A DNA stretch of 64,000 nt from Patescibacteria group bacterium (lineage in GTDB: Bacteria > Patescibacteriota > Patescibacteriia > 2-01-FULL-39-33): NCBI GenBank assembly GCA_041662745.1, contig JBAZRV010000005.1, positions 6,605 through 70,604 of the forward strand, read 5' to 3'. Positions 3,796-22,537 of the stretch are shown here, piece by piece. The notes under the pieces were generated by a model that made no database searches, was not told where the DNA came from, and was given only the letters and a program-made list of their open reading frames with translations. Position 1 is the first letter of the stretch, and each line of letters starts with the position of its first letter. The position numbers and the translations under genes are program-made.

Positions 3796-4284
3796 TTATT
3801 TTAAATAACTGTCAAAATAAATCGCATGACAGGTATAACCGCCGGGATTTTTCTGTAAATAATCCTGATGATAGTCTTCGGCGAGATAAAACTTGGTAAG
3901 CGGTTCTAATGCGGTAACAACCTGATTTTTCCAACGCTGGGATTTGTTTACAATATCTATGAAATTTTCAGCCTCCCTCCTCTCGTCATCATTGCCATAA
4001 AAAATCGCCGAGCGATAAGAAGTGCCGACATCATTGCCTTGTTGATTGAGGGTAGTTGGATCGTGAATTTGGAAAAAAAAGTCCAATAATTTTTTATAAG
4101 AAGTTTTATTTTCATCGTATTCAATCTCCACTGCCTCAGCATGACCGTCATGATTTTCATAGGTCGGATTAGCAATCTTGCCGCCGGCATATCCGACTTG
4201 GGTATTTATCACTCCGGGCTGTTTTCTAATCAGTTCCTCCAAACCCCAAAAACACCCTCCGGCTAAGACTATTTTTTTAGCCAT
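3796..4284 (-). CDS. msrA: peptide methionine (S)-sulfoxide reductase MsrA
   Basis: GCFWG active-site motif at the N-terminus ([17 protein letters not shown]); full-length similarity to MsrA. Confidence 0.9.
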
Positions 4285-4288
4285 ATAA

Positions 4289-4645
4289 TTAATCTTTTGG
4301 AATGAATTTCATGGAAATGGAATTAACGCAATATCTTTTGTCTTTCTCTGTTAATTTTTCACCTATAAACAAATGGCCCAAATGCGCTCCGCACTTGGCG
4401 CAAGTTATTTCCGTACGCCGTCCATCAGCATCAAGGCTCTTATAAACGGCGCCCGGTATTTCATCGTCAAAACTCGGCCAACCGCAATCGGATTCAAATT
4501 TATCTTTAGAATCATACAGCGGCGCTCCGCATTGCCGGCAAACGTACACGCCGGTTTCTTTATTATTCACATATTCGCCCGAAAACGGCGCTTCCGTACC
4601 CTTATCGATTATCACTCTTTTTTCTTCAGGCGTTAGTTCGTTCAT
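4289..4645 (-). CDS. msrB: peptide methionine (R)-sulfoxide reductase MsrB
   Basis: SelR/MsrB fold with two CxxC zinc pairs ([20 protein letters not shown]) and catalytic region (CGWPSF). Only 4 bp downstream of msrA. Confidence 0.9.
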
Positions 4646-5613: not shown

Positions 5614-5663
5614 CCAAGCATAAAAATCTAAAATATAATAAGGTTTTCAATTTTTAAAATAGA

Positions 5664-5729
5664 ACGACCGGCATTCATGGCGAATACCGGTCGTTTGGAA
5701 AACAAATTCAAAGCTCAGCGGACTGGATT
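5664..5729. repeat. distal copy of a 66-bp direct repeat (attR-like) carrying the displaced 3' end of tRNA-Asn
   Basis: 62/66 identity with 20881-20946. Contains the hairpin acgaccggcattcatgGcgaataccggtcgt, the flank ggaaaacaaattcaaag, and the 16-nt tRNA 3' end ctcagcggactggatt, then diverges. Confidence 0.7.
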
Positions 5730-6098
5730 TCCGTCTCATCTTTTCTTCCGAAAAGATTGCGGTGTCGCGGTCAGAGCTGAATGCTCCCAGGGTCGCATCC
5801 AGCTACGCTCAACTGCGTTTTATTTTGACAGAATTCAAAATAAAACTTGTTTCGTTCCTGCCCTGTTCGAATCCAACTAAACTGAAAATAGTTTAAAATA
5901 AAACAGGGCATAAAGCCCCGTTTTATTTTAAACAAGTCCAAAGCTCCACGCTACGGTCTGGAACCATTTTTACCAAGGGTTCTTGGGGTCTTTATGAGCG
6001 TTTTCTACCGGGAATCGGTCGGGGTAAAATGCGACAAATGCGACAGTACTTTATGCTGGTTTTATTGGACAAAATGAAGATTTGATAGTCCAATATTA

Positions 6099-6647
6099 CT
6101 ATACATTAAAATTATACCCAACGGGAGGATTATCTAATAATTCTTTGTACTCATTATTATGTCTATCTATTTCCCCTCTATCTACGGAATAGATATTTCC
6201 AAGCGTGTCTAAAATATATATATAATCACAATTAACAAGGTTAACATCAATTAATTTCTGGGTATAAATAAAACCCTCCTCATTTAATCGTACGGGAGCA
6301 TCGGATAATGGCGTATTAATTTTTATTTGACCAAAACGTCCATATATTAGTCTGCTTGCAAATATTCCATCCTTGCCAGTTTTTATTATGTTTATAAAAG
6401 AAACAACTTTATTTTTTGAAATTATATCAAAACCCAATCGTAATTTTAAATTCGCTTTTTGTCTTGAATAATCATACAACTTCCAATAAGCATTTATAAA
6501 TAAGCCACCAATTGAAAAAACAAATGCGGCGATAGAAAGTATTAATGCCATTGGAATATCCAAATATATATTAATCAAAAAAATCAGAAGCAATACTATT
6601 GTTATACTTAACAATATTAACAATATTGGCAATCGAAATTTATCCAT
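6099..6647 (-). CDS. hypothetical membrane protein (2 N-terminal TM helices); third gene of the AlbA_2 operon
   Basis: ORF in a very AT-rich block. N-terminal TM helices (LPILLILLSITIVLLLIFLINIYL, ALILSIAAFVFSIGGLFINAY). Its start lies 3 bp after the upstream gene's stop. Confidence 0.5.
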   Translation of the reverse strand: MDKFRLPILLILLSITIVLLLIFLINIYLDIPMALILSIAAFVFSIGGLFINAYWKLYDYSRQKANLKLRLGFDIISKNKVVSFINIIKTGKDGIFASRLIYGRFGQIKINTPLSDAPVRLNEEGFIYTQKLIDVNLVNCDYIYILDTLGNIYSVDRGEIDRHNNEYKELLDNPPVGYNFNV

Positions 6648-6650
6648 ATT

Positions 6651-7373
6651 TTATAATCTTCTTTCCAAAAATTTTTTCTGATCTTCGACAAAAATCTTTT
6701 TATCTACATTATCCCAATCAAATTTCTTAAAAATTTCAATGGTTGTATCAAGAGCAATCTCATTTGTCAAATTACAAATTTGATCCCGCGAATATACTTT
6801 TTTAATCAGAATTTTATCCTCCTTAAATTTACATATATATGCTCGGTTTGTTTCTCTTAAAAATATATCCCAAAAAAATAACATTCTGTTATTGACTCCC
6901 ACTAATTCAATAATAATTTCCAGTGAGTCAATATTTTCTATATTAGTTAATAATCTTTTAGAGAATTCCAAAATTTCTGTTATAGAATAAAGTGCTCCAA
7001 TAATACTTAAAAATTTATCAACTTTTACCCCGTATTCGTCTTGATATTCCTTCACTTTTTGCGGGGATAATCTCAGATCTTCCCTCATGGAAAAATAATG
7101 TACAAATTGTCCGGTATTATAAAATCTCCAATATTCATAAACTGGCCCCTCAGGCCAATCACAAAATGAGTCAACGCTGTTATTACTACTAGATATAATA
7201 CCGGTTTGACGATCTACGTGCGGGTAATCCCATCCCCGCAACGATACTCTACTTTTTTCAATAATTTTTTTACAATCAGATAGAGATTCAATTAATTTAT
7301 CATCATATTTATTTGGTCTAATAATAACCCTCCAATATCCCTTTAATTTAATTTTGTCTAATAATTCACTCAT
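6651..7373 (-). CDS. hypothetical protein; middle gene of the AlbA_2 operon
   Basis: 240-aa ORF with no recognisable motif. Its start overlaps the stop of the AlbA_2 gene by 4 bp (ATGA). Confidence 0.5.
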   Translation of the reverse strand: MSELLDKIKLKGYWRVIIRPNKYDDKLIESLSDCKKIIEKSRVSLRGWDYPHVDRQTGIISSSNNSVDSFCDWPEGPVYEYWRFYNTGQFVHYFSMREDLRLSPQKVKEYQDEYGVKVDKFLSIIGALYSITEILEFSKRLLTNIENIDSLEIIIELVGVNNRMLFFWDIFLRETNRAYICKFKEDKILIKKVYSRDQICNLTNEIALDTTIEIFKKFDWDNVDKKIFVEDQKKFLERRL

Positions 7374-8014
7374 AAATTATCTTTTATTAAATCAGTATTA
7401 AATTTATCTGAATCTGTTTCAGTGTCCACATTTAATAAGTTAACACAAGGGAGTTTTTTTAATATATCTTCTTTTTTCTTTTGAACCATCCGATCTAATA
7501 ATTCGCGCCACTCATGAATACTGGATATTTCCCTAGACTCAATCGGGGCTTTCGATCTGATATATATCGCATTCTTTCTTAACGCAATATTTTCATAATG
7601 ATTGCCCCCTTGCTTTTTAAACAGAGCAAAATCTGTACATACAGTGGGTTCAATTGATTCATGAATCTGTAAAATGATAAAGTTTTTAGATTCATCATCA
7701 ATTATTAAATTATCAGAAAAAATAGTAAACTCAATAATTGGGTCACAAAATCTTTTTATGAACCTCGCGATATCATCATAATTAAAAGATTGAAAATCGC
7801 TATCAGTCATACCCGATAAACTAACGCTTCGGTCTTTTTCTTCTTTGACACCCAAAACAATCACGCCACCCTGATCATTATTAGCCATAGCCAACATAGC
7901 TTTTAAAACGTTTATTTTCGTTTCGTAAGCATTCCAATTCAGTGATCCTTTATATTCAATGCTTTGTTCCTCATGACGACGTATTATGTAATTCGAAAAT
8001 TCTTCATTAAACAT
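7370..8014 (-). CDS. AlbA_2 (Schlafen-like) putative DNA-binding domain protein
   Basis: N-terminal region fits the AlbA_2 pattern (EQSIEYKGSLNWNAYETKINVLKAMLAMANNDQGGVIVLGVKEE). The C-terminal half is uncharacterised. Confidence 0.55.
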   Translation of the reverse strand: MFNEEFSNYIIRRHEEQSIEYKGSLNWNAYETKINVLKAMLAMANNDQGGVIVLGVKEEKDRSVSLSGMTDSDFQSFNYDDIARFIKRFCDPIIEFTIFSDNLIIDDESKNFIILQIHESIEPTVCTDFALFKKQGGNHYENIALRKNAIYIRSKAPIESREISSIHEWRELLDRMVQKKKEDILKKLPCVNLLNVDTETDSDKFNTDLIKDNL

Positions 8015-8549
8015 CTGATTAATAAATTATTATTTTAATTAAACTTACATTATCACTCTACACCCAAATTGTTATCGAATCAAGATGATTGAACAGTATT
8101 TTCCTATTGCTAACCTCGCAAAAAATATTCAAAAAACCCAGCAAAAAAGCCCTTTTGACAGCCATATAACAAAAGAGTATATTGAAAATAGGCCAGTCAT
8201 AATTCAACCAATAACAAAACCCCCCGAAAAAATTTACTTGACAAATTGGTTTTTTAGGAGTATAGTGACGAAAGGATGAGGTGAAAACCACCGCCGAAAA
8301 ATGCTATTTCAACAATTCATTAAAATGCCACCCTTAATCGGGCAACGCAAGCTCCCTTCATAGAGCCTCTAGAGTTTTAATGCGCATAGCGGTAATATTT
8401 CTAAACCGCAAACCGGAGTAATCCTCTGGTTGGTCTCAATAACATATAGTGAGAGGCCCAGAAGCAGAATTTAACCATGAAAATGGTAAAGTTTTGCGTC
8501 TGGGCCTCTCTTTTATTTTTCAAATTTTTAACAAATTAACAATAAATCT

Positions 8550-8918
8550 ATGTCAAAGACAAAATTTATCAGCACGATCGACTCCGATAATATCGAAGTC
8601 ATCGATCGCGTTCAAAAAGTGGCTGAATTCATCGAATTCGTCAATTGGTCAGCCACTCCGAGCCGATTTCGGCAGCCTAAAAACCAGAAGGATTTAGCTG
8701 CCGAAATCGGAGTGAGTATCGATTCGCTTACTGACTGGAAAAAACATCCGAGCTTCTGGCCGCTAATGCAAATTGCCTTGCGGAAATGGTGCCAAGATCA
8801 AATCCCCGACATTGTCGGCGGATTATACAGCAATGCCTGCGGCAAAGGCAAAGCGGGCGATGTCAAGATGTTCCTGCAATTAGCGGGGCTGATTGAGAAT
8901 AATAAAACTAATAAATAA
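8550..8918 (+). CDS. small HTH protein, phage terminase-small-subunit-like
   Basis: HTH segment QKDLAAEIGVSIDSLTDWKKHPSFW resembles TerS N-termini. Its stop is 8 bp before the ParB-MTase start. Preceded by a large stem-loop. Confidence 0.4.
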   Translation: MSKTKFISTIDSDNIEVIDRVQKVAEFIEFVNWSATPSRFRQPKNQKDLAAEIGVSIDSLTDWKKHPSFWPLMQIALRKWCQDQIPDIVGGLYSNACGKGKAGDVKMFLQLAGLIENNKTNK

Positions 8919-8926
8919 CGAAAAAT

Positions 8927-10276
8927 ATGAATGAAAATTCAAACCAAGCCCCAACGGGCTTAAAAATCGTGGAAGTTCCGATCACTGAGCTTCATGCTTC
9001 CGAGTATAACGCTCGGAAGCATTCCAAAGAACAGGCTAATCAGCTCAGGGAGTCGATTGAGCGATTCGGGTTAGTCGATCCGATTATCTGCAATAATGCT
9101 CCAGAAAGGCAAAATATCGTCATTGGAGGCCACTTCAGGCTTGAGGTAGCCAAAGATCTCGGCTATGCCGAAGTTCCAGTCGTCTACGTTAATATCCCCA
9201 ACATTGAGAAGGAAAAGGAATTGAATTTGCGTTTAAACAAGAACACCGGCGAATTCGATTTGGATCTGCTCGCTCAATTCGATGAATCCTTTCTGGCTGA
9301 CATCGGGTTTGATAGCGAGGAATTGGATCAAATCTTCCCGACTGAAGAAAATATTGAAATGTTCGATTTGAAGAAAGAACTGGACAAATTAGGCATTGGC
9401 GAGATTAAAGTCCAGAAAGGCGATATTTATGAGCTGAACGGTTCGAGGCTAATGTGCGGAGATTCCACTCTAGAAGCCGATGTGCTTGCGCTAATGGGCG
9501 ATGAAAAAGCCACGATGTGCCTCACAGATCCGCCGTATATTTTAGATTATTTGAAAGGCAAGACAAAAAATCAAGATGGCATTACCGAAGGCTTTGGCGC
9601 TAAGAAAAATCGAGTGTATATCGGAACCGAGGTCTTGCCCGATAATTTCACGGAATTATGGATGAATAACGTCGCAAAAATTCAAAAGCCTGATTTTTCC
9701 ATTATCGTTTTTGAGAATCCCAAAAACCTCAGGATAATCTGGAATGAACTCGAGAAGCACTGGAAATACCGCAATACGATTGTCTGGCATCTGCCGAACC
9801 GAGTCCAGGGATTTTCTTCCAAGTACAAGTTTTTCAATAAATCAGACATTGCTTTAGTCGGCACTGGCGGTGAAGTGGAATTGAATTTAGAAGACGAAAC
9901 AGAGGAATTGTTCCAGCAGGAATACGAGAATGCCATCTATGCGACCTCAGGCAAGCCTCATTGGGAATCTTACGAAGCTGGCAAGAAAATCTGTCCGACT
10001 GATTTCATTGAGTTTAAAGCGGCTGATGAGAAGTCCTCTGGGCAAGGCATCATCTTCGGCACCAAGCCGATTGAGATCCTTATTCCCTACATCAAAGTTT
10101 TGACCAAACGAGGTGATTTGATTGTTGAAGTCTATGGTGGAAGCGGCAGTACCCTTATCGCGGCCATTAAGATGAACCGTCGCTGTTACCTGATGGAGAA
10201 ACAGCCGATTTATGCCGAGGTCATCTTGAACCGCTGGGAAAGAGAAACTGGCAAGAAGCCAGTGAAGATTAACTAG
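8927..10276 (+). CDS. ParB-like nuclease domain fused to a beta-class N6-adenine/N4-cytosine DNA methyltransferase
   Basis: N-terminal ParB/Srx-like signature (IVEVPITELHASEYNARKH...GGHFRLEVAKDLGYAEVPVVYV). C-terminal catalytic motif IV (CLTDPPYILDY) and AdoMet motif (VEVYGGSGSTLIAA), in the DPPY-then-FxGxG order typical of the beta class. Confidence 0.8.
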   Translation: MNENSNQAPTGLKIVEVPITELHASEYNARKHSKEQANQLRESIERFGLVDPIICNNAPERQNIVIGGHFRLEVAKDLGYAEVPVVYVNIPNIEKEKELNLRLNKNTGEFDLDLLAQFDESFLADIGFDSEELDQIFPTEENIEMFDLKKELDKLGIGEIKVQKGDIYELNGSRLMCGDSTLEADVLALMGDEKATMCLTDPPYILDYLKGKTKNQDGITEGFGAKKNRVYIGTEVLPDNFTELWMNNVAKIQKPDFSIIVFENPKNLRIIWNELEKHWKYRNTIVWHLPNRVQGFSSKYKFFNKSDIALVGTGGEVELNLEDETEELFQQEYENAIYATSGKPHWESYEAGKKICPTDFIEFKAADEKSSGQGIIFGTKPIEILIPYIKVLTKRGDLIVEVYGGSGSTLIAAIKMNRRCYLMEKQPIYAEVILNRWERETGKKPVKIN

Positions 10277-10292
10277 CACCTTTGTTAAACGT

Positions 10293-10877
10293 ATGATTAA
10301 GAGTCCCACCAAAAAAAAGTTGCTCGCTGAATTGGAAAAAAACGGCAATGTCACCATTGCCTGTTTAAAGTCCGGAGTCAACCGAGCGACTTTCTACCGG
10401 TGGAAGCAAGAGAGTAATGAGTTCAAGGAGAGAGCGGAACAAGCTGAACTATCCGGACGAGAAAATAACTGCGATATTGCCGAACAATCTTTGATGTTGA
10501 AAATCAAAGATAAAGATTTAGGAGCGATTAAATACCTGTTAAGCCATAACTCTCCAAGATATAAAGGCAAGGAAACTAGCATGGCGGTGATTATCCACAA
10601 GAAGGAAATGCCTGAATCAGAATTTATTAGCATAGAGCAACCTGAAGTATATAATAGAGTTTGTCATGAATATGCAATTGAGCTTCAAGAAAAATATAAG
10701 TATTTGGGAGAAAAATTACCAAACAAACCCAATGGATTACCGATAGAACTTGATGAACTGCCTCTTTATGAAACATACATTGAAGATTGGAAAGAAGAAA
10801 GAAGAAAGGAAAGGGTCGCAGCAGGACTGGAGCATGAACGACAGGTTATGCCATGGATCGCGCAGAAGGAAGATTAA
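10293..10877 (+). CDS. HTH-domain protein, terminase small subunit-like or excisionase-like
   Basis: N-terminal HTH (NVTIACLKSGVNRATFYRWKQE). Lies 16 bp after the ParB-MTase gene. The charged C-terminal half is uncharacterised. Confidence 0.4.
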   Translation: MIKSPTKKKLLAELEKNGNVTIACLKSGVNRATFYRWKQESNEFKERAEQAELSGRENNCDIAEQSLMLKIKDKDLGAIKYLLSHNSPRYKGKETSMAVIIHKKEMPESEFISIEQPEVYNRVCHEYAIELQEKYKYLGEKLPNKPNGLPIELDELPLYETYIEDWKEERRKERVAAGLEHERQVMPWIAQKED

Positions 10878-10880
10878 TGA

Positions 10881-11963
10881 TTATTCCAAATGGGTGCTGG
10901 CTTTTATAACCAGCAATATGTCATCGTAATTTTGCAAAAATTCCTGCGGTTCTATTTTGTAAGTATTTTCCAATAATTCATCTGCTGTCGGTTTAAGCTT
11001 TGATTTGGATATTTCGTTATAAAAAGCATTGAAATATTTGTCAAACACTTCTTTATCGGTATGATTCTTGAGCCAGCCGAATTTAATCAAAAATGTGCCG
11101 TCGGAATAGATTGAGAATGGCGAAATAGTCGAACTAAGCTTTTTGATTATTGGCGCAAACGAACCATTGGCATTACCAGTACCCCATTTTATCTTGTCAG
11201 TATTCGCTTTGAGATATTCATAAAGCTTAAATACTTTCTCTGCTTCCGCACCTAATTTTTCTTTCGCTTGAATAAAAAAACTTTCTTCATCCCAGATTCT
11301 CCTTTGGTTAATAGTAGAAACAGACATGCCCTTTTTTACCTCTACGCCAAACAACTTGGGAATCATTATCTCGTACTGCTCGTACTTGTAATATTCCATT
11401 TGAACGGCATAGATATCGAAATGGCTATTCTGGTTGATATAGACAATCAGGTCTTTCAACCTGTCTTCAATCGAATCCATCAGAATAACGAATTTGATAT
11501 TGCCTTGCTGGAGGTTATTTTTAATGGCTTCCAGCATGTCAACTACCTGCTCATCGTCAATATTAAAAAATGCCTTGGCTTTCTCTTCAAAACTGACTTT
11601 AAATTTATTACTAACCTCACTATTTATCTTAGCGATGAATTCGCTAAAGTCGCTATGGCGCCAAAGCGAAGCTCCGTAATCAAGGGCTTGGGCCACGACT
11701 GTTCTTTTGTCGGGATTCTTGTAAAGCTTAGTTTCCACGACATAGATGTCGCCATCCTTGTCGATAGCCAAAGCATCGATGGGGCCAGACTCGGTCGAGA
11801 ATTCCCTGGCGACAACAAATAGCTTCTTGTCTTCTTCGATTTCATAGACAGGAATGGACTCGGGGTTCTCATGGATATAATTCTGCAAATAGCCTTCTTT
11901 CTCAAAGATAGACTTATCAATCCTCTGAGCCTTTTTGCCGTCTTGAGAAATAATTATGGACAT
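10881..11963 (-). CDS. hypothetical protein with putative N-terminal PD-(D/E)xK nuclease-like motif (NucS/DUF91-like)
   Basis: D-x(n)-E-x-K arrangement (GPIDALAIDKDGDIYVVETKLYK) resembling the NucS/DUF91 endonuclease core. The rest is uncharacterised. Confidence 0.35.
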   Translation of the reverse strand: MSIIISQDGKKAQRIDKSIFEKEGYLQNYIHENPESIPVYEIEEDKKLFVVAREFSTESGPIDALAIDKDGDIYVVETKLYKNPDKRTVVAQALDYGASLWRHSDFSEFIAKINSEVSNKFKVSFEEKAKAFFNIDDEQVVDMLEAIKNNLQQGNIKFVILMDSIEDRLKDLIVYINQNSHFDIYAVQMEYYKYEQYEIMIPKLFGVEVKKGMSVSTINQRRIWDEESFFIQAKEKLGAEAEKVFKLYEYLKANTDKIKWGTGNANGSFAPIIKKLSSTISPFSIYSDGTFLIKFGWLKNHTDKEVFDKYFNAFYNEISKSKLKPTADELLENTYKIEPQEFLQNYDDILLVIKASTHLE

Positions 11964-11967
11964 AGGA

Positions 11968-12297
11968 TTATGATTGGCCTACCTTAATACGGGATTGGAT
12001 AAAGTCGCTATATAGCTTTTGACCCTCAGGATCGCCTGAAGCGACTACCCCGTCTTTGTTAAGTAGGATGGTTAAATTCAGTGTCTTGGCCGGCTTATTG
12101 GCAAAATACAGATAAAGGATGCCGGGGATAATAGCGCAACATAATAGCAATAAGGCTAAGAGGCAGCTGCCTTTCTTGGCAGGAATCTGCTTCTGGTAAT
12201 TGACCACTTTGTCAGAGTGGCTGATTAGAAGCCAGCCTGAGCCGTTAACGGCCATATAGTCGATGAAGTCATTTAATACTTCGTTTGATTCGCTCAT
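11968..12297 (-). CDS. small membrane protein
   Basis: One TM helix (CLLALLLLCCAIIPGILYLYF). Its stop is 4 bp upstream of the 10881-11963 gene. Confidence 0.4.
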   Translation of the reverse strand: MSESNEVLNDFIDYMAVNGSGWLLISHSDKVVNYQKQIPAKKGSCLLALLLLCCAIIPGILYLYFANKPAKTLNLTILLNKDGVVASGDPEGQKLYSDFIQSRIKVGQS

Positions 12298-12682
12298 AGA
12301 GTTTTTGGGTTAATAATAAAGCCAGCTAAGTGGTTTTAGCTGGCTTGAGAGAATTTGCATAAACACAAAGCCCCACGCCAGCTGAGCCTTACGGCCCCAT
12401 ACCCGTTTCCAGGCATGACCCAACAAAGAGTCGCTGATCGTGGGGATCAGTATCTTTGTTGGGTATTTTGAGCCATGCCCGCCAAATGACGGGTTTAGGC
12501 TCTGCTTTCGCTATAAATTGTACTTTTATTGTACTATAAAAGGTTCGACTTTGTCCACCATACTAGCTTAAATAACAGAATCCGCGAAGTCGAGTTATCA
12601 ACAGGTTGCCTACTGCCGGGGTCTGGACTCCCAGCCGCCAGTCCGGCATCATGTCCCTTACATAAGAAATAACTTCAAATTT

Positions 12683-14008
12683 ATGGGACTAATAAGTGAC
12701 AAGGAAATGGCGGTTTTAGGGCATACCAGGACGTTTGAGGCGGTCTTACCGGTAAAGTACTGTCTTTATGCGAGAAAGTCGACCGAGGACGACGAGAGGC
12801 AGGCTTTGAGCATCGAATCTCAGGTTAAAGAGATGCTGGAGCAAGCCCAAAAAGACAAACTGAATATTGCGGAAATAAAGAGAGAATCCCACTCAGCCAA
12901 AGACTCAGGTGAAAGGCCAGTATTCAATAAACTGATGAGGGAGATTAAGGAGGGAAAATTCGACGGCATCCTGACCTGGGCTCCAGATAGATTGAGCCGT
13001 AACGCTGGCGACTTGGGCAGTATCGTCGATTTGATGGACAGAGGCATGATCAAGGAGATAAGAACGCACGGCCAAACATTCATCAACTCCCCTAATGAGA
13101 AATTCCTGCTGATGATTCTGTGTTCCCAAGCCAAATTAGAAAATGATAATAAGGGCGAGAATGTTAAAAGAGGATTGAGAGCCAAAGTGGAAATGGGCTG
13201 GAGGCCGGGCATGCCACCGCTCGGTTATCTTCACGACAAGAATGGCGACAAAGGCAAAAGAAGAGCTTTTACTGATCCCAAAAGAGCGCCGATCATGAAG
13301 CAATTGTTTGATAAAGTTGCCTATGAGGGCTGGAGCGGTCGAGCCATATTCAAATGGCTCGATGAAATGGATTTCAGAACTAGATCGGGCAAGAAGATGA
13401 CCTTAAGCTCAATCTACCTCGTACTCAAAAATACTTACTACTATGGCTACTTTGAATATCCAGTGGGCAGCGGCAATTGGTATAAAGGCGGACACGAGCC
13501 GATTATAACAAAAGAAACTTTCGATGAAGCTCAAATACAACTCACGGTAGCGCCAAAATCCAAACCAGGCACCAAAGAATTCAGCTTCACTAAAATGATA
13601 AAATGCGGAGCTTGCGGATCAGGTGTAACGGCAGAAGAGAAATACAAAAAACTGAGCGATGGCTCAGTCAAAAAATATATCTATTACCACTGCAGCAGAT
13701 TCAATGATCTTAAATGCAAAGAATCCTACATCAGGGAAGAAAACTTAACTATTCAGCTAGTCAAATTAATAGATAAAATCGACATTAATCTTTTGAAAAC
13801 CCAAAAGAGAATTAAGGATGAGATAGACCGCTATCAAAAATTCACTAAAAATATCCTAGGTGTAGATAACAAAATAAAGATGCCGGAGATAAATATGAAA
13901 GACTATGCCAGATATGTTTTGACGGATGGCACTAGAGAAGAAAAAAGAGAACTGCTTAATTGCCTGGATTCTGAATTAAAATTGATGGGGCAGAAGATTT
14001 ATATTTAA
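12683..14008 (+). CDS. large serine recombinase (resolvase/invertase catalytic domain, recombinase domain and zinc ribbon)
   Basis: N-terminal catalytic domain with the nucleophile-Ser context (YCLYARKSTEDDERQALSIESQ) and resolvase motifs (GILTWAPDRLSRN). Central recombinase domain, then C-terminal Cys cluster (CGACGSG...YYHCSRF). Confidence 0.85.
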   Translation: MGLISDKEMAVLGHTRTFEAVLPVKYCLYARKSTEDDERQALSIESQVKEMLEQAQKDKLNIAEIKRESHSAKDSGERPVFNKLMREIKEGKFDGILTWAPDRLSRNAGDLGSIVDLMDRGMIKEIRTHGQTFINSPNEKFLLMILCSQAKLENDNKGENVKRGLRAKVEMGWRPGMPPLGYLHDKNGDKGKRRAFTDPKRAPIMKQLFDKVAYEGWSGRAIFKWLDEMDFRTRSGKKMTLSSIYLVLKNTYYYGYFEYPVGSGNWYKGGHEPIITKETFDEAQIQLTVAPKSKPGTKEFSFTKMIKCGACGSGVTAEEKYKKLSDGSVKKYIYYHCSRFNDLKCKESYIREENLTIQLVKLIDKIDINLLKTQKRIKDEIDRYQKFTKNILGVDNKIKMPEINMKDYARYVLTDGTREEKRELLNCLDSELKLMGQKIYI

Positions 14009-14095
14009 CGCATAATTGCAATATCTCATTCCAATTAATAATACATCTGGTTAATATATTGCCACAGGTAGCGCTGAAAATCTTAAAAAGCTAAA

Positions 14096-15565
14096 TTATG
14101 ACGCTTTTAAAAAAATATATGTATTCCTCAATGCAGGAAAAATTCTTAACAGCTTATTAGAATTTTTGTCAAAATCAGGCAAATTTTTAATTGCAATCAA
14201 AAAATACCTAGCAATTTTCTCTTCGTTAGAGAATAATTGATAAAAATCATTTTTTATGGACATCTTTGAACCATAAGAGCCAAACTTAGCAATAAAAATT
14301 AAATAATATCCAATAAACATAAAATTAGATGTGCCATAAACCTTTTCCTTTTCTAATGACAAAACTAATTCCATGTCAATTTCATTTGCTTTTAATAATG
14401 CTCTTAAAATAAAAATTTTCTGGTATAAGTAAGGCGACGATTTCAGAACGCTTATTAATAATCGTTGAATATCAACCCTATCTATGTAATCCTCTAGATA
14501 ATAACAAATTTCTTTTGAGTAGCATGGATCGAAAAGATTATTTTTTAAAATGCTTTCCAACGGGTGGCTTAAATGTAATCTTTTGAATTTATAGATGCAA
14601 AACTTAAAAACGGTCTTATTAATTTTGTCAACTGCTCTATTTATTACAGCATCGTCCCACATTTCTTTCAGTTGATCATCAACGAAATCGCAATTATCAT
14701 CATCAAAATCGGACATTAAATAATTAACAAAATCCATAGTGTCAGAATAATTATTTTTATTGGTTGTATGTTTCGAATAATTAATTATCTCAGTTTTACC
14801 GCCATTGAGATGCAGATTTAATGGCCTCAGTAATTCCGTCAATTTGCTTAATGCCCTTCTAACGCCGATTTCATCATCCGAAAATACCCTTATATCATCC
14901 ACAAATCTATAATAATTAAATCCAGACTCGATCATGGACTGATCAACCTCGTATAAATATACATTTGCCAAAAATGAAGCACAATCATTGCCCTGGCATA
15001 ATCCAATCTCATCTTCACACCAAGTATTTAAAAGATGGCTTAACTTATCTGAGATTTCTTTTTCTGTTCCTAAATATTTTAATATCTCGATGATTTTTTT
15101 GATTTTGATATGTTCAAAAAATGCGTTGATATCGGTTTTTAAAAGAAACCCATTCGGATTATTAATAAAATTATCATTTGATTTCTTTATAAAACTTTTC
15201 CAACTTTCAATATTTTCATTCCTATTCAAAAAATAATTTTTCTTTTTTGATATCCTATAACCGAAACTGATTTGGCTTGAAACTAGCAACTTATCAATAT
15301 CTTTGCTAAATCTGTTTAGTATTAATTGAAAATACAACCTATCTAGGATAGAAATGAAATATCCTGGCCTCAATATTAAATTCGGCTTCGGTATGTCTAA
15401 TATCAATAAGCTATGAGGAGTATAATTATCAAAATCAATTTCATAAAAAATTGATGGATTATTAATATAATCACGATAATTAATGACATCAGGCCAAAAA
15501 TCATCGTTTTCATCCTTACTGATATTGCTTACGGCTACATTAATTTCTTCCCTAGTGAAATTCAT
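14096..15565 (-). CDS. reverse transcriptase (standalone, defence/Abi-like) with alpha-helical C-terminal domain
   Basis: RT motifs: TDINAFFEHI (motif 2-like), GLCQGNDCASFLANVYLYEVD (motif 4/QG), YYRFVDDIRVF (YxDD catalytic motif), LHLNGGKTEI (motif 6-like). The ~200-aa C-terminal region has no identifiable domain. The gene is very AT-rich. Confidence 0.8.
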   Translation of the reverse strand: MNFTREEINVAVSNISKDENDDFWPDVINYRDYINNPSIFYEIDFDNYTPHSLLILDIPKPNLILRPGYFISILDRLYFQLILNRFSKDIDKLLVSSQISFGYRISKKKNYFLNRNENIESWKSFIKKSNDNFINNPNGFLLKTDINAFFEHIKIKKIIEILKYLGTEKEISDKLSHLLNTWCEDEIGLCQGNDCASFLANVYLYEVDQSMIESGFNYYRFVDDIRVFSDDEIGVRRALSKLTELLRPLNLHLNGGKTEIINYSKHTTNKNNYSDTMDFVNYLMSDFDDDNCDFVDDQLKEMWDDAVINRAVDKINKTVFKFCIYKFKRLHLSHPLESILKNNLFDPCYSKEICYYLEDYIDRVDIQRLLISVLKSSPYLYQKIFILRALLKANEIDMELVLSLEKEKVYGTSNFMFIGYYLIFIAKFGSYGSKMSIKNDFYQLFSNEEKIARYFLIAIKNLPDFDKNSNKLLRIFPALRNTYIFLKAS

Positions 15566-15630
15566 ATAAACATATTCATTAAAACTGACTAATCCTTATG
15601 ATTATTCATCTTAAATTTTCGAACATACAA

Positions 15631-16047
15631 TTACAATTTCGATACTAGCTTATTTTCGATTTTAGACATAGACTTATTAAAATTTCTTTGAGTTAATTGG
15701 TGTTCCCAAATCCTCAGAACCTTCCATCCCATTCTTTTTAATTTTCTTCTATTCTTAACATCCCGATGAATATTAGCTTCAATTTTAGCGCGCCAATACT
15801 TCTTTGGCAAGCGTTTTTTCGTATTGCTAAAATTGTAACCGTGCCAAAAATCGCCATCAATAAACACGGCGATTTTTTTGCGTGGCAGGGCGATATCCGG
15901 CTTGCCCGGCGCCCTTTTATAATGCTTTTGGAAATATACGCCTCTTTTCCTTAATTCACCGAAAACTAAAAGCTCCACTTTGGTGTTCTTGCCCCTGATC
16001 TTAGACATTATCTCGCTTCTTTTCTCTTTTGAAAACACGTCTGCCAT
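15631..16047 (-). CDS. vsr: very-short-patch-repair endonuclease Vsr
   Basis: Close match to E. coli Vsr along its length (MADV...KRSEIMSKIRGKNTKVE...PGKPDIAL...IAVFIDGDFWHG...GWKVLRIWEHQL). Confidence 0.85.
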   Translation of the reverse strand: MADVFSKEKRSEIMSKIRGKNTKVELLVFGELRKRGVYFQKHYKRAPGKPDIALPRKKIAVFIDGDFWHGYNFSNTKKRLPKKYWRAKIEANIHRDVKNRRKLKRMGWKVLRIWEHQLTQRNFNKSMSKIENKLVSKL

Positions 16048-16085
16048 AATTCACTGTTGGGATTATTTTCTATTCATTTTCTAAT

Positions 16086-16125
16086 ATGATATAATATTGT
16101 CATACATGTGGATAACTCCACAGGA
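16086..16125 (+). promoter_or_regulatory. putative promoter plus palindromic operator upstream of the LexA-Dcm gene
   Basis: Extended -10 (tgatataat) at 16086-16094, followed by a perfect 16-bp palindrome TGTGGATAACTCCACA (16107-16122) ~23 bp upstream of the ATG. Read directly from the sequence. Confidence 0.4.
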
Positions 16126-16145
16126 ATAAAAAATAACTAGAAAAT

Positions 16146-17696
16146 ATGCCCACACTTACTAAGAAACAAAAAAACGTTCTTGATTTTATTGAGGGCTATC
16201 GCGATAGGAAGCACTATTCCCCCTCCCATGAAGAGATCAAGAATCACTTCAAGCTATCTTCCGTTTCAACTGCGCATCATTATATCTCCAAGTTGCAGAA
16301 GGCCGGATATCTGAAAAAAGAAGATAACCAGCCGAGATCAATAAACCTCTGCTTCGAACCGGTAATCCAGATTGATCTATTGGGCAATATTACTGCCGGC
16401 CAGCCAATCGAAGCGATTGAATTAGGCAAGGAAACAATCGCTATTCCTAGCTATGGACTTAATAGGAATAGTAGCTATTACGCTCTCAAAGTCAAGGGCG
16501 ACAGCATGATCGATGAAGGGATATTCGACGGCAGCATCGTAGTCATCAAGAAGCAATCAACTGCTGAAAACGGCCAGACCGTAGTCGCCGTGATAGATGA
16601 TAACGAGGCAACACTGAAAATGATATACCGCGAAAAGAATAAATTCCGCTTGCAGCCAGCCAACCAAAGCATGCTTCCCTTTTACCGCAAAGAAGTGGAA
16701 ATCCGCGGGGTAGTGATAAAAATCATCAGGGATTTATATAAAGAAGAGCAGAAATTCAGAACTCTTGATCTATTCGCAGGCGTAGGTGGCATCAGGCTGG
16801 GATTTGAAAAAGCCGGTTTCGAGACCGTATTCGCTAATGACTTTGAAAAAGCCTGCGCAGATACTTATAACAAGAACTTCAAGACTTCAAAATTAGTAGT
16901 AGAGGATATTAGGAGAATCGGAATCGATGATCTGCCTGAATTCGACTTCCTGCTCGGCGGCTTTCCTTGCCAGGCATTCTCAATAGCTGGCTACCGCAAA
17001 GGATTCGAAGATGACAAAGGGCGGGGCAACCTATTCTTTGATGTCGCAAGGATAATAGAAACCAGAAGGCCGACAGGATTCCTAATGGAAAACGTCAAGA
17101 ACCTTAAAAGCCATGATAACGGACGGACATTCAAAATCATCAAAGAAACCCTGGAAAACCTCGGCTATCATATCAAAGCCAGGGTTTTGAATAGCGTGGA
17201 GTACGGCAATATCCCCCAGAACCGTGAAAGGATTTACATCGCCGGATTCAGGGACAAAAGGCATTGCGATAATTTCGAATTCCCAAAGCCGGTGAAACTG
17301 ACAAACAAGGTTGCAGATCTTCTCGAAAAAAAAGTTGATGAAAAATATTATTACAATGGAAAGCCTCTTTACCAAAAGCTTAAGGATTTCGTGAAAGAAA
17401 AAAATAAAGTCTACCAATGGCGCCGCCAATACGTCCGTGAAAATAAAAAAGGCGTCTGTCCGACGCTGACTGCGAATATGGGGATGGGCGGCCATAATGT
17501 TCCGATTATCAAGGATGACAAAGGCATTAGGAAGCTTACGCCGTTAGAATGTTTTAGGCTCCAGGGATTTCCAAAGAGCTTCGAGCTTCCAGCTAATTTG
17601 GCTGATTCAGCTCTTTACAAGCAGGCCGGCAATTCAGTTACAGTTACAGTATTGGAAGCGGTAGGCAAGCAAATGATGCAGGCTGTCAGCGACTAA
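16146..17696 (+). CDS. fusion protein: full-length LexA-type repressor (wHTH plus S24 autopeptidase) fused to a C5-cytosine DNA methyltransferase (Dcm-type)
   Basis: aa 1-~195 align with LexA: wHTH (LTKKQKNVLDFIEGY...SKLQKAGYL), Ala-Gly cleavage site (ITAGQP), Ser nucleophile (KVKGDSMIDEG) and Lys (EATLKMI). aa ~200-516 carry C5-MTase motifs I (LDLFAGVGGIRLGF), IV (GGFPCQAFSIAG), VI (ENVKNL), VIII (QNRERIYIAGF) and X (RKLTPLECFRLQGFP). Confidence 0.85.
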   Translation: MPTLTKKQKNVLDFIEGYRDRKHYSPSHEEIKNHFKLSSVSTAHHYISKLQKAGYLKKEDNQPRSINLCFEPVIQIDLLGNITAGQPIEAIELGKETIAIPSYGLNRNSSYYALKVKGDSMIDEGIFDGSIVVIKKQSTAENGQTVVAVIDDNEATLKMIYREKNKFRLQPANQSMLPFYRKEVEIRGVVIKIIRDLYKEEQKFRTLDLFAGVGGIRLGFEKAGFETVFANDFEKACADTYNKNFKTSKLVVEDIRRIGIDDLPEFDFLLGGFPCQAFSIAGYRKGFEDDKGRGNLFFDVARIIETRRPTGFLMENVKNLKSHDNGRTFKIIKETLENLGYHIKARVLNSVEYGNIPQNRERIYIAGFRDKRHCDNFEFPKPVKLTNKVADLLEKKVDEKYYYNGKPLYQKLKDFVKEKNKVYQWRRQYVRENKKGVCPTLTANMGMGGHNVPIIKDDKGIRKLTPLECFRLQGFPKSFELPANLADSALYKQAGNSVTVTVLEAVGKQMMQAVSD

Positions 17697-18877
17697 TCAT
17701 CCTCGGATTCCCCAGACCTATCTTCCTTTACCTCCCCCGCAAATTCTTCATAAGATCCGACTTTAGTGAAGTCAATGTCATATTTTCCTTCTCCAATTTT
17801 GTATATTACGACTGAGTCCAAGCCGATCTCCTCTAATTTGCCATAAGTCAAAAGATCTCTTTCTTTCAGATCCAGTATGTCTCGAAGAAGCCACTGGCCC
17901 AGTGCCGAATTAGGATTGCTCATCAACGCCTTTGATCCGTCCTGGCATACCTTGGCTGACATTTCAGCGCCATTCGGCAGGAGCAGGGTGAATGAAGTGT
18001 CGCGCGGAGGGAAAAATCCCGGATATTCAGAATGTATCAATGCCGGGATCGGAATATACACTTCATCAGGATTTCTCGGCCTGCCTAAGGCATTCCATTG
18101 ATTGAGTCCGCTCCTGGCCGGCACTTCTTTAATTCCTTTTTTTGATGAATAAAGCGGAAGAAAAACATGAGTAAGAGCCTTAATGGGCGCAAAAACAACT
18201 TCCCGTTCAACTTTCCTGAAAACATTTTCAAGCGCATCAAAGGGATTCTCCAGTATTTTTACCGGAAAATCCAATAATGCATCGGATAAATTAAACCTTT
18301 TGTATAATGTGCTCTTGGTCACATTGAAGGAGTACTCATTGCTGCCGTCGCTGAATGAAATCGCATTCGCATTCTTTCCTGATTTGATATTCCTTATTTT
18401 TGATAAATTTACCAGATCCATTCCTGATTCATAAACCAAAATACCGCCCTTTTTCCGAGTAACGCAGTGATACATCATTTTTTCCAAACCGAATATTCTT
18501 TTTGTCGCGTTAATCCGCTCATTCCTCAGCCCGGCTATCTTAATGACTTTTCCCTTATCATCCAAATTTCGGAATAAATTATGCTCGCTATTGAATTCAG
18601 CGATCTTCTGCATAGTCGCTCCATTGCCTTCAAGGAAAGTTTTGATTCCGATTCCAACTTTATTCTTAGCCGCATCAGCTGAACAGTCGGTTCTGGATAA
18701 ATTGTCGGCATTAAAAGACTTGCAAAATAAATTTTCTGCAATCCTGTATTGGATATACGGCTCCTGGCTTTCTGAAAACAAACGGGACAACGATCCGATC
18801 GTACGGAGCATCTCCTGATAATATGATATGCTTTTCTTGTCCTGCTTATTCAGAAACATATAATGATATTTTCTCAC
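17693..18877 (-). CDS. putative type II restriction endonuclease, cognate to the adjacent C5-MTase (function inferred from context)
   Basis: 394-aa ORF convergent with the MTase gene, 3' ends overlapping by 4 bp. No known motif recognised; the call rests on the dcm-vsr neighbourhood. Confidence 0.35.
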   Translation of the reverse strand: MRKYHYMFLNKQDKKSISYYQEMLRTIGSLSRLFSESQEPYIQYRIAENLFCKSFNADNLSRTDCSADAAKNKVGIGIKTFLEGNGATMQKIAEFNSEHNLFRNLDDKGKVIKIAGLRNERINATKRIFGLEKMMYHCVTRKKGGILVYESGMDLVNLSKIRNIKSGKNANAISFSDGSNEYSFNVTKSTLYKRFNLSDALLDFPVKILENPFDALENVFRKVEREVVFAPIKALTHVFLPLYSSKKGIKEVPARSGLNQWNALGRPRNPDEVYIPIPALIHSEYPGFFPPRDTSFTLLLPNGAEMSAKVCQDGSKALMSNPNSALGQWLLRDILDLKERDLLTYGKLEEIGLDSVVIYKIGEGKYDIDFTKVGSYEEFAGEVKEDRSGESEDD

Positions 18878-18920
18878 TTTACCGCTATTGTGTCAATTCG
18901 AATATAAACTGCCGAAAGCC

Positions 18921-18985
18921 AGTCTAGAACCAAAACGACCGGTTCGCCAGTGGCGGATCGGTCGCGCAGGAAAACAAGTTCTTGG
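18921..18985. repeat. third copy of the hairpin-plus-flank repeat (lacks the tRNA segment)
   Basis: gtctagaaccaaaacgaccgg is identical to 20869-20889. Followed by a different hairpin (ttcgccagtggcggat...cggtcg) and ggaaaacaagttc. Confidence 0.55.
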
Positions 18986-19018
18986 TTTTTATATTTGGAT
19001 ATAATAATGAAATTTAAT

Positions 19019-20569: not shown

Positions 20570-20880
20570 GGTGCTGTCTTTAGCCGCCTGGATAAATTTA
20601 ATATATATTTGTTTAGTGGCTCCAATAGTTTATCGCGCCATGCCTTCAGCCGATGACAAAAGACGTTCTCTTTCAGCCAAAGACAACTCGGACAACCTTT
20701 CTGGATTGTGCAAATAATCGGCTAATTGGGGCTCGCCTTCATACTGTTCCCGATCCTCGTAACGTCCAAATTTTTCCATAAATATCATTCATTTATATGT
20801 GTATTATACACTATTTTAACTAAAAACAAAAGTCGAACGAACTAACTTCGAACTTTGCCCCCAATCGGTCTAGAACCAAA

Positions 20881-20946
20881 ACGACCGGCATTCATGACGA
20901 ATGTCGGTCGTTTGGAAAACAAGTTCAAAGCTCAGCGGACTGGATT
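20881..20946. repeat. proximal copy of the 66-bp direct repeat (attL-like), overlapping the 3' end of tRNA-Asn
   Basis: Matches 5664-5729 at 62/66 positions. Positions 20931-20946 are the tRNA 3' end. Confidence 0.7.
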
Positions 20947-21002
20947 CGAACCAGTAACCTACCGGTTAACAGCCGGTTGCTCTACCATTGAGCTACCGCT
21001 GA
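20931..21002 (-). tRNA. tRNA-Asn (anticodon GTT)
   Basis: Manual fold: TCAGCGG/CCGCTGA acceptor stem, GCTC-AATGGTA-GAGC D arm, ACCGG-CTGTTAA-CCGGT anticodon arm (GTT), ACTGG-TTCGAAT-CCAGT T arm, discriminator G. CCA is not encoded. Confidence 0.85.
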
Positions 21003-21039
21003 ACCTTGAACTTGTTTTATTTTTTTAAGTTCATCCAAT

Positions 21040-21215
21040 TTAACAGCCGGCGAGCCGGTTGCTCTTCCTGGGCAGCGCTGAACGCTCCCATTGGTCGCGT
21101 TCATCGACACTCGACTTCGCCTTGAGGCTCGTCTTGTTTCTGCCCGTCCATCCGCTAAAGCGGATCGGACCCATTTCGCTACCGCTGAACCTTGGACTTG
21201 TTTTATCGATCAAAA
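21040..21215 (-). other. tRNA-like structured leader or pseudo-tRNA fragment between the promoter and tRNA-Asn
   Basis: Repeats the tRNA 5' end plus 17-nt upstream flank (ataaaacaagtccaaggttcagcggtagc, 28/29 identical) and an anticodon-arm-like element (gagcaaccggctCGCCGGctgttaa). No T arm. GC-rich with several hairpins. Confidence 0.5.
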
Positions 21216-21225
21216 ATAACTTAAT

Positions 21226-21254
21226 TATATTAGCAAAAAAATCGCCGTTTGTCA
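21226..21254 (-). promoter_or_regulatory. sigma-70-type promoter driving the leader and tRNA-Asn
   Basis: On the minus strand: TTGACA, a 17-nt spacer, TAATAT, immediately upstream of the tRNA-like leader. Confidence 0.55.
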
Positions 21255-21277
21255 ATAATTTACCGGCTGTGGAAAAC

Positions 21278-22537
21278 TTAGTAATCCCTTAATTTTTCTA
21301 TTCCTTGGATTTTTTCAATCTTCTCCAGCGCCTTGGCTTCAATCTGGCGGATGCGCTCGCGGGTAACGTCAAACTCCTTGCCCACCTCTTCCAGCGTATG
21401 CGCCACGCCGTCGCGCAGACCGAAACGCATTTCCAACACCTTTTGTTCGCGCGGCGTCAACTCGCTGATCACCTGCCGGACATAATCGCTCAAGATGCGC
21501 AAAGCGGCGGCGCGATCCGGCGTCAGCGTCTTCTGGTCTTCAATAAAATCCTCCAGCACCGAATCTTCACTGTCGTCGCCCACGGGCGTGCCCAGCGATA
21601 TCGTCTCTTGCGAAATCTTTAAAATATGCAAAACCTTTTCCAGCTCCTCGCCCATTTCCGCGGCGATCTCTTCGGGCATGGGTTCGCGCCCCAGATCCTG
21701 CACCAAGCGCCGTTCCACTTGCTGAAAACGATTGATGTTCTCCACCATATGGACGGGAATGCGGATAGTGCGCGACTGATCGGCCAGCGACCGGGTAATG
21801 GCCTGGCGAATCCACCAAGTGGCGTAAGTGGAAAACTTATAGCCCTTATGATAGTCAAACTTTTCTACGGCGCGGAACAAGCCGATGTTGCCTTCCTGAA
21901 TCAGATCCAACAGCGACAGATTCTTGCCGGTGAACTTTTTGGCAATGGAAACCACCAGGCGCAGATTGGCCTTGATCAGTTTTTGTTTGGCTTCCACATC
22001 GCCCCGTTCAATCCGTTTGGCCAAAGAGATTTCTTCTTCGGTGTGCAACAAGGGCACCTTGCCGATTTCGCGCAGATACATCTGAATGGAATCGGCGGAA
22101 ATGTCGCCCAAATCAATATTCTCCCCCAAAGTAATCTTGGCGGCTTTCTTTTCCTTGGCGGTCAGTGGCGGTGGCGGTACGCCGGTCGGCGGTTTGCCCA
22201 GCAAGGACGGCGTTTCCACGACGGCGATATTGGCATAATCCAAATCATCCAGTATGCCTTCGTACTGGTCAACGTATTCCTCTATCTCCGGGTAGAGCAA
22301 CGCCAATTCCTGCTCGGTTACAAAACCGCGGATCCTGCCCTTCTTCATTACCGCTTCAATCTCCAGCGGATTGGGCAGAACTGCCTGATGCGCCGTTTCT
22401 TTGGCTCGCGCTTTGGCCTGGTGCGGTTTCTTGCCCCTGGCCGGCTTGCGCGCTTTGCTCGGCTTGCGCGCCGGCTTCTTCTTGGCCTTGGCTTTGACCG
22501 GCTTCTTGGCCGGTTTTTTCTTTTTTATTTTTGGCAT
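21278..22537 (-). CDS. rpoD: RNA polymerase sigma factor RpoD (sigma-70) with lysine-rich N-terminal extension
   Basis: Regions 2-4 conserved ([32 protein letters not shown]; region 4.2 [24 protein letters not shown]). N-terminal ~50 aa are K/A/P-rich. Confidence 0.9.

Follow-up and report, generated by a model that had tools for sequence, protein, structure and literature searches.

The window, i.e., the whole 64,000-nucleotide stretch of DNA analysed here, carries on its minus strand the gene order dnaG (24487-22562), rpoD (22537-21278), a leader (21271-21040), tRNA-Asn(GUU), a trailer and a terminator hairpin, and the best matches of its RpoD are named Buchananbacteria or Parcubacteria (Patescibacteria, CPR). 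The tRNA-Asn(GUU), detected by ARAGORN and Rfam (75.7 bits), is the single tRNA in the 64 kb; promoter, leader and tRNA all share the minus strand, and an insert of ~190 bases, made of copies of tRNA pieces around a folded RNA core, separates the promoter from the tRNA. The features of the locus are listed below in the order of transcription:

21227-21255, minus strand: native tRNA-Asn promoter, with the -35 box TTGACA (21255-21250), a 17-nt spacer and the TG-extended -10 box TAATAT (21232-21227)
21171-21206, minus strand: 5' duplicate (repeat D1), consisting of a 17-nt flank copy (F') and tRNA nt 1-12, followed by GAAATGG, which replaces the D-loop sequence TCAATGG
21146-21170, minus strand: hairpin P2, GUCC-GAUCCGC-UUUA-GCGGAU-GGAC, from folding
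21070-21145, minus strand: three-way-junction core, with P3 GGGCAG/CUGCCC (21145-21140 with 21075-21070), hairpin P4 with a GA/GAA internal loop (21133-21113) and hairpin P5 (21106-21076), from RNAalifold, covariation and covariance-model matches
21040-21069, minus strand: linker and 3' duplicate (repeats D3 and D4), with AGGAA, GAGCAACCGGCT (21064-21053), the insert CGCCGG (21052-21047) and the anticodon-loop copy CTGTTAA (21046-21040)
21003-21039, minus strand: A/U-rich spacer, containing the tRNA-proximal flank copy F (21020-21004)
20930-21002, minus strand: intact tRNA-Asn (GUU), with no intron and CCA not encoded
20879-20930, minus strand: 3' trailer (20930-20916) and terminator hairpin (20913-20879), from inverted-repeat matches

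For comparison, we used 179 loci around rpoD/tRNA-Asn (designated by L numbers) from species-representative genomes, JGI metagenomes and assemblies with close RpoD homologues, in which clade rpoD followed by tRNA-Asn is a common arrangement. The original prediction had placed a TTGACA-17-TAATAT promoter ahead of the leader, and a promoter scan found it at 21255-21227 on the minus strand (a strand that the prediction had left unnamed), with 10 of 12 matches plus the TG extension. This is the tRNA-Asn's own promoter, and the arrangement TTGAC-N17-(TTTTTTTGC)TAATAT is found directly 5' of tRNA-Asn in L088, L165, L166, L164 and L002. Lying between the tRNA's own promoter and the tRNA, the leader must be co-transcribed with tRNA-Asn, and its position thereby supports the co-transcription that had been proposed; a scan for terminator-like sites inside the leader detected none. 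Furthermore, the 3' trailer is complementary to both flank copies, F and F', and lengthens the acceptor stem by 13-15 bp. Window positions 21020-21004 pair with 20930-20916, a comparable complementarity of tRNA-Asn flank and trailer is present in L088, L165, L003 and L167, and the pairing of flank F with the trailer covaries in L088, L165 and L003. Given this covariation among relatives, the extension of the acceptor stem appears to be a conserved feature of the tRNA-Asn precursor, possibly a processing signal.

Both ends of the leader are duplicates of the adjoining tRNA gene. The 5' duplicate is identical to 20985-21020 at 33 of 36 positions (repeat D1), and at 28 of 29 over ATAAAACAAGTYCAAGGTTCAGCGGTAGC, which agrees with the near-exact copy of the tRNA 5' end and its 17-nt flank reported initially; a 28/29 match at a distance of 186 nt cannot be chance. 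At the opposite end, GAGCAACCGGCT, CGCCGG and CTGTTAA together reproduce tRNA nt 22-38, interrupted by 6 extra nt (repeat D3, AGCCGGTTGCTCT, 15/16; repeat D4, TTAACAGCCGG, 11/11), and these two repeats (21064-21040) account for the anticodon-arm-like piece that had been noticed; the CTGTTAA copy is not clearly retained in L088. The genuine tRNA begins 37 nt past this copy, in line with an earlier estimate of ~40 nt. No second tRNA was matched by the Rfam tRNA model in 20800-21350, even at E<=10, nor by ARAGORN, which likewise reported only 20930-21002; the leader is therefore without a T arm, as had been stated, and a whole-window annotation check (Rfam/ARAGORN) yielded one tRNA and left the leader unmatched by any known family.

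Conversely, the middle of the leader is of a different nature. GC content is 0.55-0.62 across 21050-21199 vs 0.28-0.42 in the flanks (60% GC in the core), and the GC-rich hairpins expected by the original prediction were recovered in the computed folds. However, its description of the whole leader as tRNA-like holds for the ends, which are true tRNA-Asn duplicates, and fails for the middle ~105 nt, a GC-rich core formed by hairpin P2 and the three-way junction P3/P4/P5 that is neither tRNA-like nor tRNA-derived. The leader segment is identical in two further contigs, L081 (ENA ERZ27249449) and L082 (JGI 3300014208), which makes an assembly artefact unlikely.

The consensus fold of the window and L088 shows that the two duplicated ends pair with each other: CGGUAGC, copied from tRNA nt 5-11, pairs with GCAACCG, copied from tRNA nt 24-30, closing the module. 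GUUCAG of the 5' duplicate would also pair with UUGGAU (21038-21033; UUGAAU in L088, consensus GUUCAG/UUGRAU), a predicted pairing taken from the same consensus, and both pairings together would give a ~13-bp interrupted helix from which P2 and the three-way junction project. For the full precursor, both the minimum-free-energy and the centroid fold keep leader and tRNA as separate domains; the leader has a folding z of -3.6 on the tRNA strand vs -2.8 on the opposite strand, and G-U pairs are present on the tRNA strand. Between the window and L088, 5 compensatory pairs were counted (e.g., A-U to G-C in P4 and C-G to U-A in P5), one G-C turned G-U on the tRNA strand, and the apical part of P2 is replaced in L088 (ACC-GAAA-GGG) with its base GUCC/GGAC retained. 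A protein-coding reading was rejected: a 48-aa ORF (ATG 21186 to TAA 21040) runs through the core, and the sequence of L088 stops after 11 codons, placing the conservation at the RNA level.

The distribution of this module among relatives is uneven. Loci L164, L165 and L166, with RpoD 95-97% identical to that of the window, have promoter, flank and tRNA with nothing between, and the same plain promoter-tRNA arrangement is found in L167 (RpoD 85%) and L163; rpoD four-fold sites are 79% identical between the window and L165. Since the closest relatives do without the module, it is accessory, and any function it has must be dispensable. It is absent from L163-L167 and L171-L179, and L088 carries the whole module at the same place, with an RpoD that is 88% identical over its conserved part and nearer to other lineages (the intron-bearing L001/L002). 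The RpoD relatives closest to L088 have no module on their contigs, several of which stop right after rpoD. The module is thus patchily distributed and accessory, not a conserved leader of the lineage. A plain promoter-tRNA order in relatives, which the original prediction had named as the observation that would speak against it, is present in L163-L167 and not in L088, where the segment is retained.

Within the module, however, conservation between the window and L088 exceeds that of the surroundings: identity reaches 70% in the core and 36/36 in the tRNA-like ends, vs 37% at rpoD four-fold sites and 30% in the A/U spacer. The retention of the segment in L088 with compensatory changes indicates that it is not junk, and these identities of core and ends, set against a saturated background, contradict the suggestion that the leader is a decayed paralogous tRNA. 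Part of the similarity between the window and L088 could stem from recent horizontal transfer instead of purifying selection.

Further copies of the core were identified with a covariance model (R1) built from the window leader and L088 copies only and searched against 640 kb, with E-values that are rough. Beyond its parents, R1 matched L013 5131-5256 (35 bits, E ~1e-6) and window 5769-5863 on the minus strand (30.9 bits, E ~1e-5), and both sites are flanked by copies of the tRNA-Asn T-loop and 3' end, sequences that lie outside the model; the rebuilt model R2 scores the window 5.8-kb copy at 59.9 bits. The second copy in the window is composed as follows:

5663-5966, minus strand: window sister copy, 3'-linked, found by R1, R2 and blastn
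5966-5930, minus strand: decayed tRNA 3' end and trailer
5929-5895, minus strand: terminator 1
5876-5865, minus strand: T-arm 5' mimic UUGGAUUCGAAC
5863-5769, minus strand: three-way-junction core
5757-5738, minus strand: extra hairpin
5729-5713, minus strand: exact copy of tRNA-Asn nt 58-end
5712-5699, minus strand: trailer
5696-5663, minus strand: terminator 2

The sister copy thus runs from a decayed tRNA 3' end and terminator through TTGGATTCGAAC, the core, AATCCAGTCCGCTGAGC and the trailer to a second terminator, and L013 has an intact tRNA-Asn and terminator, followed by GGTGTGGTTCGAAC, the core, ATCCCACCCCCGGAGCC and a second terminator. The copied 3' ends are close to their sources, with 17/17 positions identical in L013 and 63/67 (blastn) between window 5729-5663 and the true tRNA 3' end, trailer and terminator. 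These 3'-linked layouts place the core in the T-loop of a tRNA 3' fragment, and in the leader it occupies the D-loop position of a 5' fragment. Accordingly, the known copies are 5'-linked in the window leader and L088, and 3'-linked in L013 and at window 5.7-5.9 kb, in both cases with a terminator on either side; all four distinct copies of the core family lie inside truncated tRNA-Asn copies adjoining tRNA-Asn loci. The 3'-linked copies, standing behind terminators, may be poorly transcribed. The leader itself, judged by R1 and R2, has the traits of the family, namely P2 with the P3/P4/P5 junction, covariation and nesting in a tRNA-Asn fragment. Both 3'-linked copies are adjoined by msrA and msrB (L013:5491-6608, upstream of the tRNA; window 3796-4645, downstream of the element), which is either remnant synteny or coincidence.

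The common fold was assessed on all four copies. Single-sequence folds beat shuffles in 4/4 copies, with the tRNA strand slightly more stable in each. In the four-copy alignment, 97% of the cells are in standard pairs and double-sided changes occur in 17 of 37 pairs, figures that derive from only four sequences in an alignment fitted to the covariance model; 0 of 500 shuffles equal it, and sliding the partners by 1-3 columns lowers pairing to 24-41%. Because of that fitting, the analysis was repeated with plain MAFFT and RNAalifold, which independently recovered P3/P4/P5; compensatory changes affect 10 of its 24 pairs. The family is genuine, though rare within the sequences searched: among the 179 loci R2 found only L088 and L013, in addition to the two copies of the window; blastn with the core detected no other copy within the window, two pattern scans of viral contigs returned no real match and R2 recognised no member among their hits, and blastn against phage records returned none. 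With its filters off, R2 reported the same two window copies and an 11.5-bit match at 18829-18937, probably due to chance. This match adjoins a tRNA-Asn trailer copy at 18.9 kb, on its 3' side.

Comparison with known RNA classes gave no direct assignment of the core. At the gathering threshold no Rfam family matched it. Relaxing the cutoff to E<=10 for the leader, L013 and the copy at 5.8 kb brought up only chance-level matches and a weak RtT match in L013, and no relevant riboswitch, T-box or leader family. Hammerhead, T-box, SRP, tmRNA and archaeal BHB-intron patterns were compared by eye, and none fitted the junction. tRNA-linked repeats (TLRs) have been known from E. coli since 1978, and to our knowledge most of them are still without an assigned function. 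These repeats, corresponding to the RtT/RttR RNA (Rfam RF00391) and including the RrA/B/F sRNAs of rrn operons, are the closest known kind. They are short ORF-less elements within tRNA/rRNA transcription units; each closes with 18-19 bp identical to the 3' end of the gene before it, and three such elements (rrA/B/F) have a terminator on both sides, their expression coming from read-through (PMC8144298).

The resemblance is closest for the 3'-linked copies. The TLRs of the E. coli tyrT locus, as read here, consist of a T-stem 5' mimic, a ~75-nt multi-hairpin core and tRNA-Tyr nt 58-76; L013 and the window 5.8-kb copy share this layout, with tRNA identity beginning at the same T-loop position (AATCC...), carry the 3'-end copy typical of TLRs (17/17 in the former, 63/67 at window 5729-5663 in the latter) and lie between two terminators, as rrA/B/F do. 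Like a TLR, the leader belongs to a tRNA transcription unit and adjoins the gene, but it stands upstream of the tRNA, its core occupies the D-loop instead of the T-loop position, and what it duplicates is the 5' flank plus 5' end of the tRNA that follows (first 28/29 nt), not the 3' end of a preceding gene. The host phylum also differs (Patescibacteria vs E. coli). L013 aligns to the complete Rfam RtT model (positions 1-130, right strand) with 13.9 bits and E = 2.4 (4227 families), far short of the 45 bits set for gathering; L013 also shares a 16-nt identical block, AGGAGCGAAGCGACGA, with the tyrT-tyrV TLR, and its pairwise comparison with one E. coli TLR copy reached z = 6 against shuffles, the sole significant pair. 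No RtT match at E<=10 was obtained for the leader or the window 5.8-kb copy, and the reciprocal search with R2 missed the E. coli TLRs. In view of the sub-gathering score, the lack of an RtT match to the leader and the failed reciprocal search, we did not file the leader in RF00391; by analogy, it is filed as an element that would work like a TLR, in a 5'-linked, mirror-image variant. A limited literature search found no description of a 5'-linked form of TLR-like element, which to that extent is new. A more speculative reading, to which we give rather little credence, is that the core class is ancient and scattered and has colonised tRNA genes via the D- or T-loop of duplicated ends, the E. 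coli TLRs being its enterobacterial branch; it would then be either a new sort of mobile RNA or DNA element or a conserved tRNA-coupled regulatory RNA common to groups from Proteobacteria to Patescibacteria.

With moderate confidence, we favor the explanation that the leader is an accessory tRNA-linked structured RNA module, co-transcribed with tRNA-Asn and released by tRNA processing as a small RNA. The module would be transcribed with every tRNA-Asn precursor and fold as an autonomous domain, and a stable RNA of ~150-190 nt would be freed by tRNA-processing nucleases. RNase P would cut the true tRNA 5' end and possibly the duplicated 5' site too, where the predicted ~13-bp closing helix would resemble an acceptor/T-arm minihelix; the borrowed tRNA ends would in this way let the RNA be expressed and matured free of cost. 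A role in trans, if modelled on the RrA/B/F RNAs that derive from TLRs, could consist in binding or titrating a protein or an RNA. Spacer-derived sRNAs of tRNA transcripts, such as 3'ETS-leuZ, are pre-tRNA processing by-products able to act in trans (PMC8144298). The module would resemble these sRNAs in being such a by-product, but they are short unstructured spacers, whereas the module folds autonomously over ~150 nt and carries duplicated ends of the tRNA. A structurally conserved counterpart of TLRs in the ultra-small genomes of Patescibacteria would suggest that the hijacking of tRNA ends for sRNA expression and maturation is general and old, and the core family offers a compact, covariation-supported RNA fold that is open to experiment.

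The main rival, which we hold to be unlikely although not negligible, takes the segment for a selfish or mobile element, or else for the scar of an integration, i.e., a miniature non-autonomous unit of ~186 nt (the core and one copy of the tRNA 5' part) that would have entered tRNA-Asn loci by site-specific or homologous (Campbell-type) recombination, duplicating the tRNA part otherwise destroyed; its conserved fold would aid the element's own propagation, or be a relic thereof, and not serve the host. Its patchy occurrence, in the window lineage and L088 and not in L163-L167 or L171-L179, is consistent with this, as are the flank copies, which match within a genome (a single mismatch over 29 nt in the window and over 25 nt in L088) and differ between genomes (71%), a pattern expected from recent local duplication at insertion. 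The locus is also an integration hot spot, with extra trailer/terminator copies and an island of ~13 kb between the tRNA and the distal 3' copy. On the other hand, neither a recombinase nor any other ORF lies in or beside the 186-nt unit, it is the 5' end of the tRNA that is duplicated, the core sits at the D-/T-loop position and not between two att copies, the viral contigs and phage records searched hold no copies, and empty and filled alleles were not seen within one population. The module resembles the att repeats of tRNA-integrated islands in that a tRNA segment is duplicated and the tRNA stays intact, but its repeats are 186 nt apart with no gene, and no conserved ORF, between them, the duplicated part is the 5' one, and the core is inside the tRNA fragment, not beside it. 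A mobile origin and an RNA function are, in any case, compatible and not mutually exclusive.

The mobile/defence island downstream of tRNA-Asn (window 5900-19000), which includes restriction-modification genes and a serine recombinase and separates the tRNA from the distal 3' copy at 5.7 kb, has the following features:

7370-8014: Schlafen/AlbA_2 protein
8927-10276: ParB-methylase
12683-14008: large serine recombinase
14096-15565: reverse transcriptase
15631-16047: Vsr
16146-17696: LexA-like/Dcm fusion
17693-18877: NgoFVII-like endonuclease

A LOOT RNA (RF03000, 90.9 bits) lies at window 12384-12501 on the minus strand, just upstream of the serine recombinase gene and divergent from it; it was considered as a relative of the core and rejected, its fold being unrelated. 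Further copies of the tRNA-Asn trailer and/or terminator occur at window 18981-18924, 5966-5895 and 833-815 (all on the minus strand), one with a 19-nt CGTTTTGGTTCTAGAC extension and one with a decayed T-arm/acceptor, and this scatter suggests repeated insertion or duplication at the locus.

The favored reading, an accessory module released as a small RNA, has also to be weighed against a role in cis, which we consider quite improbable. F' (21206-21182) would here compete with the true 5' strand for the trailer/acceptor strand, gating the folding and maturation of tRNA-Asn, with the junction as sensor. Along 23 nt the upstream arm indeed shows 87% complementarity to the 3' acceptor strand plus trailer, and in the window as in L088 the sequence of F' follows that of the trailer; nevertheless, the minimum-free-energy and centroid folds of the precursor keep leader and tRNA apart, F' has a mismatch (C-A) and is hence the poorer partner, and there is neither a terminator/anti-terminator nor a riboswitch or T-box match. 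Moreover, the same core lies downstream of tRNAs behind terminators, where it is unable to gate 5' maturation, and the nearest relatives manage without the leader module. It is very improbable that the segment is a neutral wreck, that is, a decayed tandem tRNA-Asn paralogue with a random insertion: tRNA copies at both ends with the 3' half gone, and a CGCCGG insertion resembling slippage, would agree with it, but the core and the tRNA-like ends have been conserved over a distance that saturates neutral DNA, compensatory changes are seen, and the core recurs in unrelated tRNA-fragment contexts.

Group I introns at position 35/36 of Patescibacteria tRNA-Asn/Asp are a published class (Nakagawa et al. 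2026, PMC13011429), and among our loci tRNA-Asn is split by such an intron between 35 and 36 (CUGU|...G|UAACCGG) in L001:4198-4824, L002:4801-5145, L083:4333-4631 and L086:4211-4537. RF00028 scores 101 bits in L001 and 92.7 bits in L002, and ARAGORN misses all these intron-split genes; the L001 intron carries an HNH-type ORF. These introns share with the module the gene, the clade, the patchy occurrence and the nature of an accessory structured RNA, but the core has no group I features, leaves the functional tRNA uninterrupted and measures ~105 nt vs >250 nt. That the leader is a relic of a group I intron at 35/36, left after intron loss, is hardly credible, for although L001, L002, L083 and L086 carry such introns and the window's upstream copy goes no further than the anticodon loop, RF00028 has no match in the window, blastn of the core against the intron-bearing loci gives a tRNA-derived 13-mer only and the intron sequences, when read, do not resemble it, its place is the D-loop position and not 35/36, and the CTGTTAA copy has the spliced, intron-less junction.

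In practice, modules of this kind mislead the annotation of tRNAs and may interrupt assembly at tRNA-Asn loci, as do the 35/36 group I introns. Among the RpoD relatives closest to L088, the short-read contigs of L171-L174 stop within ~30-270 nt of the end of rpoD, at the place expected for the tRNA-Asn locus, and repeats or introns at that locus may be what breaks such assemblies. At L164:3960-4030, a tRNA-Asn 3' end and trailer (GAGCCTATAACTCGTTTT) precede a hairpin, behind which stands another copy (GAGCTTATAACTCGTTT); this constitutes a minimal tRNA-linked repeat in a nearest relative that has no leader.
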